Assembly: GCA_964545885.1 (NCBI GenBank)
Contig: CAZJHG010000001.1
Span: 31,607-95,606, forward strand
Length of the DNA: 64,000 nt
Reading direction: 5' to 3'
DNA from: an uncultured Muribaculaceae bacterium
GTDB taxonomy: Bacteria; Bacillota_I; Bacilli_A; RF39; UBA660
Below the pieces are notes generated by a model. It made no database searches, had not been told where the DNA came from, and worked only from the letters and a program-made list of their open reading frames with translations. This document shows positions 14,752 to 17,746 of this stretch, piece by piece; position 1 is the stretch's first letter; each line of letters starts with the position of its first letter. Made by a program: the position numbers and the translations under genes.

Positions 14752-14780
14752 AAAAACGATAACTAAAAAATATAGCAAAA

Positions 14781-14820
14781 AAGTTCTAAAGGTATTGACT
14801 TTTAGAACTTTTTATTTTTT
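14781..14820 (+). terminator. intrinsic terminator
   Basis: AAGTTCTAAA / TTTAGAACTT 10-bp stem, 10-nt loop, T-rich tail. Confidence 0.8.
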
Positions 14821-15134
14821 TAAAAAAAACGCTTTTTTTTAAAAATGTAAATTTTGCGAAAATCAATTTTTTTAAAAAAGTAAATATTTGTAAATCGAAC
14901 AATAAAAAAACTAAAAAAGCCCGCAAAGCTAGTGAATATAAGGAAAAAACGTTTTTTTGTTTTTAAAAAATAGTATAAACAAAAATCAAAAAATCCCTAA
15001 AAAACGGCAAAAACGAAAAAATCAAAATAATCAAAAAAACGATTTTTTGAAAAAAATTAAAAAGTTAAACTTCCTATTTTTTTCTATACCATTTATAATG
15101 GAATTAGGAAAAGGTAAAAGGAGAGTTTTTGAAT

Positions 15135-17459
15135 ATGGCAAAAAGTAGAGAAGAAATTTTCTCAAATTTACAAGTAGTAAAGAGAAACGGAAAAAAAGTT
15201 GATTTTAATCAAACAAAAATTGCAATTGCAATAAAAAAAGGGTTTGATGATGTAATTGAATCAACAATGGATGAAGAAACAGGAGTTGCAAAATACTCTG
15301 AAAAAGATATGCAAAAGATTTTTCAAGATGTATTAAACAGAATCGAAAAAGAATATGCTGACAAAGATAAAATTAAAATAGAAGAAATTCAAGACTTAAT
15401 AGAAACATCACTAAAAGCAAAAAAATATGATGAAGTATATGAAGCATTTGCTAATTACAGAGAAAGAAGAGCTCAATCAAGAGCAGCATTTACAGAAGAT
15501 AAAAGATCGCATAAATTCTTAAAAACATTAGAAGGTCTTGCTCTTAAGAGTGCTTCAGAAGATGATACAAAAAGAGAAAATGGTAACATAGATGGAAACT
15601 CAGCAATGGGAACAATGTTACAATTTGGTTCTAACGTATCAAAAGAATTTGCTAAAACATATTTAATGAAAAAGGCATATGCTGATGCTCATGACGAAGG
15701 AGATATCCATATTCATGATATGGACTTTGAAGCAATGGGTACAACAACATGCTTACAAATAGATTTAGAAAAATTATTTAAAGGTGGTTTCTCAACAGGA
15801 CATGGTTATCTAAGAGAACCAAATGATATTATGAGTTATTCTGCATTAGCAGCAATAGCTATTCAATCTAATCAAAATGATCAACATGGTGGACAAAGTA
15901 TTCCATTATTTGACTATTACTTAGCTCCAGGGGTTATTAAAACATTTAAAAAACAATTAAAAATGACAATTCAAGATTTACTAGATTATTCAGATTTTGC
16001 TTCATTTATAAATATGAAGACTGTTGAAGATGTAATTGGTAAATTATCTACTATCAATACTGAAGTAGAAGTATTTGAAAAATTTTACAAAGAAAATAAT
16101 TCATTAAAAAGACTATTTAAAATGGCTTTAGAAAAAGCTGTTGCTAAAACAGATAAAATTACTTATCAAGCTATGGAAGCATTTATTCATAATTTAAATA
16201 CAATGCATTCAAGAGCAGGAGCTCAAGTACCATTCTCAAGTGTTAACTTCGGAACAGATACTTCTCCTGAAGGAAGAATGATTATGAAAAATTATCTATT
16301 AGCTGTAGATGCTGGTTTAGGACATAGTGAAACACCTATCTTCCCAATTTCTATTTTTAAAGTAAAAGAAGGTGTAAACTATAATCCAGAAGATCCTAAC
16401 TATGATTTATTCAAATTATCATGCAAAGTATCAGCTAAGCGTTTATTCCCTAACTTTGAATTTATAGATGCACCATATAACCTACAATACTATGTTCCAG
16501 GTCGTCCTGAAACAGAAGTAGCTACAATGGGATGCCGTACAAGAGTTATGGGAAATGTAGTTGATCCTGATAAGGCAATTGCTCCAGGAAGAGGAAATTT
16601 ATCATTCACTACAATTAACTTACCTAGAATAGCTATTAGACATGGTATAGTAGGACCAAATGCTGGCGCTAAAAAAGCTGATATGAAAGGTTTCTATGAA
16701 GAGTTAGATGAAAAATTAGATTTATGTAGAGACCAATTACTTGAAAGATTCGATATTCAGTGCAAAAAAAGAGTATATAACTTTCCATTCCTAATGGGAC
16801 AAGGTAACTGGATTGACTCAGAAAAACTAAAACCTAATGACAAGCTAAAAAAAGTATTAAAACATGGTACTTTATCAATTGGATTTATTGGTTTGGCTGA
16901 AAGTTTAGTTGCATTAATTGGTGAACATCATGGTGAATCAGCAAAAGCTCAAAAACTAGGTTTAGAAATTATTGGTCATATGAGAGAAAAATGTGATGAA
17001 TATAGTCAAGAATACAAACTAAACTTCACTTGTTTAGGAACTCCTGCTGAAGGATTAAGCGGAAGATTTACTAGAATAGACAAAGCTATATATGGAAAAA
17101 TTAAAGGCGTAACAGATAGAGAATATTATACTAACTCATTCCATGTACCAGTTTATTACAATATATCAATAGCTAAAAAGATTAAAACAGAAGCTCCATA
17201 TCATGCTTTAACTAATGCAGGTCATATTAGTTATATTGAACTTGATGGAGACGTTACTGAAAATGTAGAAGCATTTGAATCAGTAGTAAGATTAATGAAA
17301 GAAGCTGGTATTGGTTATGGAGCAATTAACCACCCAGTGGACAGAGACCCAGTATGTGGCTATGTTGGTGTAATAAAAGATGTTTGTCCAGGTTGTGGTC
17401 GTCGTGAAGGAGACCCAATTCCTGCAGAATTACTTAAAAATTTAAATTTAAATAAATAG
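15135..17459 (+). CDS. nrdD: anaerobic ribonucleoside-triphosphate reductase large chain, lacking the glycyl-radical segment
   Basis: N-terminal ATP-cone (VVKRNGKKVDFNQTKI), class III RNR core, and a C-terminal Cys cluster (PVCGY...CPGCG). It stops at TAG before any RxxGY motif. The start is ATG 15135 or TTG 15129, after GGAGAG. Confidence 0.85.
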   Translation: MAKSREEIFSNLQVVKRNGKKVDFNQTKIAIAIKKGFDDVIESTMDEETGVAKYSEKDMQKIFQDVLNRIEKEYADKDKIKIEEIQDLIETSLKAKKYDEVYEAFANYRERRAQSRAAFTEDKRSHKFLKTLEGLALKSASEDDTKRENGNIDGNSAMGTMLQFGSNVSKEFAKTYLMKKAYADAHDEGDIHIHDMDFEAMGTTTCLQIDLEKLFKGGFSTGHGYLREPNDIMSYSALAAIAIQSNQNDQHGGQSIPLFDYYLAPGVIKTFKKQLKMTIQDLLDYSDFASFINMKTVEDVIGKLSTINTEVEVFEKFYKENNSLKRLFKMALEKAVAKTDKITYQAMEAFIHNLNTMHSRAGAQVPFSSVNFGTDTSPEGRMIMKNYLLAVDAGLGHSETPIFPISIFKVKEGVNYNPEDPNYDLFKLSCKVSAKRLFPNFEFIDAPYNLQYYVPGRPETEVATMGCRTRVMGNVVDPDKAIAPGRGNLSFTTINLPRIAIRHGIVGPNAGAKKADMKGFYEELDEKLDLCRDQLLERFDIQCKKRVYNFPFLMGQGNWIDSEKLKPNDKLKKVLKHGTLSIGFIGLAESLVALIGEHHGESAKAQKLGLEIIGHMREKCDEYSQEYKLNFTCLGTPAEGLSGRFTRIDKAIYGKIKGVTDREYYTNSFHVPVYYNISIAKKIKTEAPYHALTNAGHISYIELDGDVTENVEAFESVVRLMKEAGIGYGAINHPVDRDPVCGYVGVIKDVCPGCGRREGDPIPAELLKNLNLNK

Positions 17460-17482
17460 AGAAGTAGAAAGAGGTAAAAGGT

Positions 17483-17668
17483 ATGAAAACAGAAAAAATC
17501 GAAAAAACTGCTGAAACAAAAGTTGAAAGCAAAAAAATGGTTGGTGAAGGAGTAGGATTCGAAAGAATCAGAAGAATCACTGGTTATTTAGTAGGAACTG
17601 TTGAAAGATTCAACGACGGCAAAAGAGCAGAAGAAAGAGACAGAGTAAAACACACATTTGAAAAGTAG
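17483..17668 (+). CDS. separately encoded NrdD glycyl-radical domain (61 aa)
   Basis: FERIRRITGYLVGTVERFNDGKRAEERDRVKH parallels the NrdD C-terminus RRVCGYLG...FN.GK..E...RVKH. It has its own RBS (AGAGGTAAAAGG) and is in a different frame from nrdD. Confidence 0.75.
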   Translation: MKTEKIEKTAETKVESKKMVGEGVGFERIRRITGYLVGTVERFNDGKRAEERDRVKHTFEK

Positions 17669-17720
17669 TAGAAATAAACTACTATCTTTTGAAATCACAC
17701 ATATTAATAAGTCTAATTAA

Positions 17721-17746
17721 GATAGGATTCACTCCTATCTTTTTTC
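17721..17746 (+). terminator. intrinsic terminator
   Basis: GATAGGA / TCCTATC stem, 5-nt loop, T7 run. It lies inside the track's long version of the next ORF. Confidence 0.75.

Follow-up and report, generated by a model that had tools for sequence, protein, structure and literature searches.

A conserved gene pair encoding a predicted two-chain form of the anaerobic ribonucleotide reductase NrdD

Two adjacent genes for complementary parts of NrdD

The window analysed here is a 64,000-nucleotide stretch of a metagenome-assembled genome (MAG), taken from contig CAZJHG010000001.1 of assembly GCA_964545885.1 (positions 31,607 to 95,606). On its forward strand, a gene for NrdD, the catalytic protein of the anaerobic (class III) ribonucleotide reductase (RNR), is followed by a small gene for the segment that bears the predicted radical glycine. 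The mechanical list of open reading frames (ORFs) places the start of the large ORF at TTG 15129, which gives the 776 codons reported in the first-pass annotation of this sequence. The true start is likely ATG 15135, because a Shine-Dalgarno (SD) sequence, AAGGAGAG (15120-15127), sits 7 nt before it; the gene then spans 15135-17459 and the count of 776 falls to 774 amino acids. The ORF stops at TAG 17457-17459, 19 residues (RREGDPIPAELLKNLNLNK, 17400-17456) past ...DPVCGYVGVIKDVCPGCG, and no RxxGY or glycyl-radical motif is found in the large ORF (15129-17459). Re-reading of the sequence and its ORFs agrees with the first-pass annotation on both the position of this stop and the missing motif.

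A spacer of 23 nt (17460-17482) separates the large ORF from the small one, which lies in a different frame. The spacer contains AAAGAGGT (17468-17475), 7 nt ahead of the ATG at 17483, so that the small ORF has its own SD as first noted. This ORF (17483-17668) encodes 61 amino acids that read MKTEKIEKTAETKVESKKMVGEGVGFERIRRITGYLVGTVERFNDGKRAEERDRVKHTFEK in full and end in ...FERIRRITGYLVGTVERFNDGKRAEERDRVKHTFEK. Its product comprises a Lys/Glu-rich leader (residues 1-19) and a conserved core (residues 20-57, VGEGVGFERIRRITGYLVGTVERFNDGKRAEERDRVKH), within which the GGT codon at 17582-17584 specifies Gly34, the predicted radical glycine. A second stop in the large frame, TAA 17475-17477, falls five codons past the first, and the small frame is shut upstream by TAG 17465-17467. 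With these extra stops, the two frames would stay apart after one indel or after read-through of one stop, and the earlier claim that a single sequencing error could not restore a fusion holds.

Searches against the Pfam and NCBIfam profile libraries (June 2026) assign the two products to consecutive parts of one family. The large ORF covers positions 3-711 of the 746 positions of NCBIfam PRK07111 with 1018.8 bits, above the cut-off of 764 bits, and the small ORF covers positions 710-744 with an E-value of 7.7e-12. Similarly, the large ORF matches positions 1-531 of the 562 positions of Pfam NRDD (PF13597) with 619.6 bits, and the small ORF matches positions 533-562 with 32 bits (cut-off 26.2). 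The two ORFs are exactly complementary pieces of NrdD, and the match is far beyond chance. The identification of the 61-residue product as an NrdD C-terminus with the radical glycine is thus borne out by both profiles. Neither library holds a model for the small protein on its own.

Alignment to the closest solved structure, Prevotella copri NrdD (8P23), gives the same division. The large ORF aligns to residues 9-708 (E 9.8e-172), and the small ORF, over its residues 26-58, to residues 707-739; the deposited chain is four residues longer than the numbering used in the paper, in which Gly34 of the small chain corresponds to Gly711 (PMC11226230). In P. copri NrdD, residues 676-739 make up the glycyl radical domain, in which a structural Zn site is followed by the buried glycine loop, and this in turn by a short helix with a tail (PMC11226230). 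The split lies inside the equivalent domain here and leaves the Zn ribbon on the large chain and the glycine loop on the small one.

The large chain retains an intact ATP-cone (PF03477, E 2.3e-13; residues 15-115 in TTG numbering, 15171-15473), and profiles together with the 8P23 alignment place the 10-stranded barrel and the Zn ribbon after it. Its catalytic residues are likewise intact: Cys469 in the MGCRTRV finger loop (codon 16533-16535) and its partner, Cys208 in TTTCLQ on the first barrel strand, both align to conserved positions of P. copri NrdD, Cys469 to the thiyl-radical cysteine, which is Cys416 in that enzyme (PMC11226230). The large ORF ends at profile position 711, and the glycyl-radical loop (RxxGY...RVxH) is not on the barrel polypeptide. 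Jointly, the two chains supply all parts of the NrdD family.

The Zn ribbon itself, located by structure-sequence alignment at residues 738-757 (DRDPVCGYVGVIKDVCPGCG, 17340-17399), reads D-x-x-C...C-x-x-C, with Asp740, Cys743, Cys753 and Cys756 at the positions of the canonical CxxC...CxxC. Asp740 (17346-17348, in DRDPVCG...CPGCG) replaces the first cysteine of the site. The replacement is found in fused and split members of the clade alike and is therefore unrelated to the split. Given the aspartate, the metal may be held by an Asp/Cys3 set of ligands or by one that uses His735.

The pair appears to form a single transcription unit. A terminator-like hairpin at 14778-14813 ends the upstream aldehyde dehydrogenase unit and marks the 5' boundary of the nrdD unit, and a second one (17719-17741), followed by a T-run to 17751, closes the unit 3' of the small ORF. 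No terminator was found between the two genes, which are presumably co-transcribed. A leader of about 300 nt (14814-15119) separates the upstream hairpin from the nrdD SD.

Conservation, distribution and origin of the layout

The source genome is only 66% complete and is spread over 99 contigs, and comparison with relatives is therefore the key test for an artefact. The small protein was found in 21 of the 24 other species of the genus, each time as an open frame of 61-77 codons. Twenty congeneric loci, each from a different sister species, were dissected, and all have the two-ORF layout, with the large ORF ending 17-19 residues past CPGCG and the AAAGAGGT and ATG of the small ORF kept. The stop of the large ORF is TAA in 13 of them and TAG in seven, the length of the spacer lies between 15 and 83 nt, and the frame of one ORF relative to the other is 0, +1 or +2 depending on the species. 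The layout is thus shared, as the first-pass annotation had considered, and the spacing is not. Neither a contiguous gene at the locus nor a loss of the small frame as an independent unit was encountered in these 20 loci.

Pooled pairwise comparison within the genus gave a ratio of nonsynonymous to synonymous substitution (dN/dS) of 0.08 for the small ORF, with 0.05 for codons 20-61 and 0.18 for the leader. The tail of the large chain gave 0.11, and 305 codons of its body gave 0.13. Both chains, including the tail of the large one, are under purifying selection, which is strong for the small ORF.

The other RNR genes of the genus were also surveyed. The class I/II catalytic subunit (PF02867) was absent from 16 genus genomes, namely the source genome and 15 congeners, and was detected in control genomes. 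Eight congeners, some of them 90-96% complete, carry the split NrdD and no other, and by gene content the two-chain enzyme is their only recognisable source of deoxyribonucleoside triphosphates (dNTPs) by de novo synthesis. As there is no class I/II RNR in the genus and the split NrdD is the sole NrdD in most members, the two-chain enzyme should be functional. The activase gene nrdG is unlinked to the split nrdD in this genus; in the source genome, it lies on another contig (G000:C18:21311-21757; TIGR02491, 163.4 bits, cut-off 126.1), in keeping with the first-pass remark that no activase lies adjacent.

Beyond the genus, a sample of the order comprised 200 genomes, which represent about 99 genera and belong almost entirely to a single family of Bacilli with small genomes. 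A match was obtained in 103 of the 200: in 82 the glycyl-radical segment is an open frame of its own (54-78 codons), and in 21 it forms the end of a frame of 454-814 codons, where the fused sequence reads ...CPGCGR(T/R)E(S/E)DGVKFERIRRITGY.... A scan with one genome per species returned more than 580 relatives, and 75 of the best 80 are split. These best 80 loci carry the labels Oscillospiraceae, Lachnospiraceae, Acutalibacteraceae, Desulfovibrionaceae, Succinatimonas and 'Bacilli/Tenericutes' MAGs; among the carriers of the split are Oscillospiraceae, Lachnospiraceae, Desulfovibrionaceae and the cultured isolates Acutalibacter caecimuris M00118 and 'Bacterium 1XD42-1'. In 61 of the 80 cellular loci (L077-L156), nrdG follows directly 3' of the small gene, in the order large chain, small chain, nrdG. 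In a protein collection, such small proteins make up at least 7,982 clusters; where a name is given at all, it is 'hypothetical protein' or 'anaerobic ribonucleoside-triphosphate reductase'.

Phage contigs (L157-L236; for instance L158:3501-3650 and L180:3501-3620) also carry close relatives of the small chain, with cores 60-90% identical. For 74 of the best 80 relatives on viral contigs, no NrdD large chain lies within 3.5 kb, and a clear NrdG match (E <= 1e-38) occurs within that distance for only three. Two annotated viral loci have a phage context, with a small terminase subunit and an exonuclease in one and an endolysin and NinB in the other; PAPS reductase is also among the neighbours in these two loci.

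Comparison of fused and split relatives suggests how the break may have arisen. Position by position, the fused consensus runs R-x-E-x-D-G-V-K-F-E-R-I-R-R-I-T-G-Y, the large-chain tail runs R-[RHK]-[EAD]-G-E-[GASP]-[VI]-[SP]-h-E-[KR]-[LIV]-... and the small chain runs ...V-G-E-G-V-G-F-E-R-I-R-R-I-T-G-Y. The large-chain tail is therefore colinear with the fused sequence up to 'FERI', that is, with the linker and strand R-x-E-x-D-G-V-K-F-E-R-I of the fused relatives. In the family consensus, a nine-residue segment, GEGVxhE[KR][LI], is found at the large chain's end and recurs where the conserved part of the small chain begins; the two consensus 9-mers have a BLOSUM62 score of 29, which 15 of 3000 shuffles reached. 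Because the same segment flanks the break, a short tandem duplication across it probably made the split, with the stop, SD and ATG evolving between the copies. The signal is weak at the nucleotide level and rests on the family consensus, and the tail copy is eroded in the window's genus (GDPIPAELL).

A maximum-likelihood tree of the 103 large chains separates a Clostridia-type clade from a clade of the Bacilli family. It calls for at least seven changes between split and fused forms, of which well-supported branches force at least three, and a single clean origin of the split is not supported. Because the tree demands several such changes, either fission or re-fusion took place more than once or the genes moved horizontally.

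A proposed two-chain enzyme and its alternatives

In textbook class III RNRs, the radical glycine resides on the catalytic chain itself, and the enzyme consists of an alpha2 protein and the activase NrdG. NrdG, together with S-adenosylmethionine, abstracts a hydrogen from a glycine near the C-terminus (PMC4493059; PMC11226230). During catalysis, the glycine loop is buried beside the finger-loop cysteine; the domain that bears it is mobile and must exit the barrel for activation (PMC4493059; PMC11226230).

The gene pair described here very probably encodes a naturally split class III RNR, with the small chain as its regular radical-bearing subunit and not as an optional spare part. The catalytic body, with its ATP-cone, its alpha/beta barrel bearing the thiyl-radical cysteine, and its Zn ribbon, would come from the first gene. 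The second would supply, from its own SD and ATG, a 61-residue chain equivalent to the last 35 or so residues of an ordinary NrdD (the Gly34 loop, a short helix and the tail at the C-terminus). Docked in the barrel of the large chain, the glycine loop of this small chain would bring Gly34 to Cys469, and the conserved tail and leader may help to hold the two chains together. By analogy with the chemistry of the family, the unlinked NrdG and S-adenosylmethionine would turn Gly34 into a glycyl radical, which would start catalysis through Cys469. Anatomy, conservation, selection, distribution and the lack of other RNRs are direct observations; complex formation, activation of the small chain and activity of the split NrdD are predictions. 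The first-pass annotation had proposed a genuine split with an obligatory radical subunit acting in trans, and the 20 of 20 congeneric loci, the dN/dS of the small ORF, the prevalence of the split form in the family sample and the lack of any other RNR in most congeners argue for it.

Two observations weigh against this proposal. The source assembly also contains a fragment of a second NrdD, 49% identical, that runs off a 2.6-kb contig (G000:C92:1703-2620; L022:1141-2421), so the split NrdD may not be alone in this particular genome. For the window's own sequences, 1987 of 3000 shuffles reach the score of the duplicated segment, which is thus not significant there. An AlphaFold2 model of a natural in-frame relative (L085, with its TAG read as Q and an alignment of 98 rows) has a well-predicted body (mean predicted local distance difference test, pLDDT, of 83.8), and residues 769-816, including the glycine loop, stay below 50. 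The C-terminus of a fused natural control (L140), modelled with the same alignment, is also below 50, so that no conclusion about the split follows from the low value. In fold, the modelled body agrees with the P. copri NrdD structures 8P2S and 8P27 (TM scores of 0.88-0.92).

The most substantial alternative is that the small protein is an optional spare part for a full-length NrdD encoded elsewhere, or a consumable cartridge swapped after oxygen damage; in the latter case, the truncated large ORF alone would not be its partner in a fixed complex. GrcA/YfiD plays such a spare-part role for pyruvate formate-lyase (PFL) (PMC8683613; PMC13450708), and both the second NrdD of the source assembly and of a few congeners and the lone small-gene relatives of the phage contigs would fit it. 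Eight congeners, however, have neither a second NrdD nor a class I/II RNR, a glycine loop that could be replaced is lacking from the large chain, and the small and large genes are adjacent and conserved as a pair, all of which makes this explanation improbable. A more elaborate version, in which the radical chain is a freely exchangeable cartridge, so that oxygen cleavage at Gly34 would cost only a 7-kDa peptide and phages would carry the small gene of about 180 nt, with no large chain or NrdG, to re-arm the large chain of the host, is conceivable and also unlikely.

Explanations that would restore or discard a single chain fare worse. A programmed frameshift or stop read-through could be entertained for those species in which the ORFs are in frame with a single TAG or TAA between them. 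The relative frame (0, +1 or +2) and the spacer vary among close relatives, however, a second stop closes the large frame of the window shortly after the first, and no small ORF lacks an SD and ATG of its own. Trans-splicing by a split intein was also considered and rejected: the tail (19 amino acids) and the leader (19-25 amino acids) are too short for intein halves, and Pfam gave no intein match. The conserved layout, the conserved SD and ATG and the low dN/dS count against frameshifting, read-through and intein ligation together, and restoration of a single chain is very improbable. An even smaller chance attaches to a decaying nrdD pseudogene or to a contiguous gene that only seems broken through an error of assembly or sequencing. 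The incomplete and fragmented MAG would allow for such an error, but the two-ORF layout recurs in independent assemblies of 20 species of the genus, in some 80 genomes across the family and in cultured isolates, and the split NrdD is the sole RNR in most congeners. With the SD and ATG conserved, dN/dS values of 0.05-0.13 on all parts other than the leader and no terminator between the genes, assembly error and decay are excluded as explanations of the layout. The split class III RNR, with its radical glycine on a regular second chain, thus remains the preferred interpretation.

Known systems and significance

Compared with single-chain NrdD/NrdG systems, of which P. copri (8P23), phage T4 (1H78) and S. 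thermophilus (9D3X) provide structures, the split enzyme has the same ATP-cone, barrel and finger-loop cysteine, together with an aligned Zn-ribbon segment. It also shares the glycine-loop sequence RRITGYLVGT...RVKH and the presence of NrdG in the genome. It differs in that a break in the chain, after the Zn ribbon and before the glycine loop, places the radical glycine on a separate 61-residue protein; in addition, a 19-residue tail and a 19-residue leader are added at the break, and the first Zn-ligand cysteine is an aspartate.

Another point of comparison is GrcA/YfiD, to which the first-pass annotation had likened the small chain. Each is a small protein standing alone, little more than a glycyl-radical loop and a disordered N-terminus, and each has to work in trans on a large barrel protein. 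Formate lyases form the sole class of glycyl radical enzymes with known spare-part proteins, according to a 2026 review (PMC13450708). Unlike the small chain, GrcA is homologous to the C-terminus of PFL (PF01228) and serves as a repair part that coexists with a loop-bearing PFL, whereas the partner body of the small chain has no glycine loop at all. The small ORF has no match to PF01228 at E<=0.1, and NRDD is its only Pfam match. The parallel is therefore useful as an analogy, and it extends neither to homology nor to the role of a spare.

Fission of RNR catalytic subunits has precedents in other classes. In phage Aeh1, the class I nrdA is split by a homing endonuclease. In Pseudomonas aeruginosa, a class II RNR is split into NrdJa and NrdJb (Crona et al., 2015, as cited in PMC9669993). 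These two systems are the nearest precedents, as in both the catalytic subunit is translated as two chains that come back together, and the C-terminal piece carries an element essential for function. They differ in RNR class and in the position of the split, and the part cut off there is a large domain (IscU-like plus a Zn finger in NrdJb) rather than the radical loop. Full-text literature searches found no description of a split NrdD, and this real, conserved and widespread two-chain form of class III RNR is apparently undescribed.

If the two-chain form is correct, the anaerobic RNR would formally resemble class I, in which the radical lies on a separate subunit. It would also offer a natural 61-residue substrate for NrdG, making a question of long standing, the presentation of the buried glycine loop to the activase, directly testable, and cultured carriers such as Acutalibacter caecimuris would render the split NrdD experimentally tractable. 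Clostridia of the human and animal gut commonly carry the split form, as do Bacilli with small genomes, where it can be the sole recognisable route to dNTPs de novo. At present the small gene is 'hypothetical' in automated annotation, and its large partner could pass for truncated.

The ends of the two chains vary among relatives. In many other genera, large-chain tails end in Cys-rich sequences such as ...NCGC, ...DCCK, ...CDCR and ...SCNC (loci L058-L076 and L081-L117), and some small chains end in ...TCSCGK, ...ECGCSCNE or ...KCCK (L059, L060, L016, L072). Clostridial large-chain tails have a conserved ELRKKYPxxPxFxGxE in place of the Cys-rich end, and the window's genus has neither feature. 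Among the few other congeners with a second NrdD, the additional copy is fused in some (G001:C3, 729 amino acids). One congener has an open frame of 1210 codons (G004:C96) that matches the NrdD profile in two pieces and could hold an inserted element.

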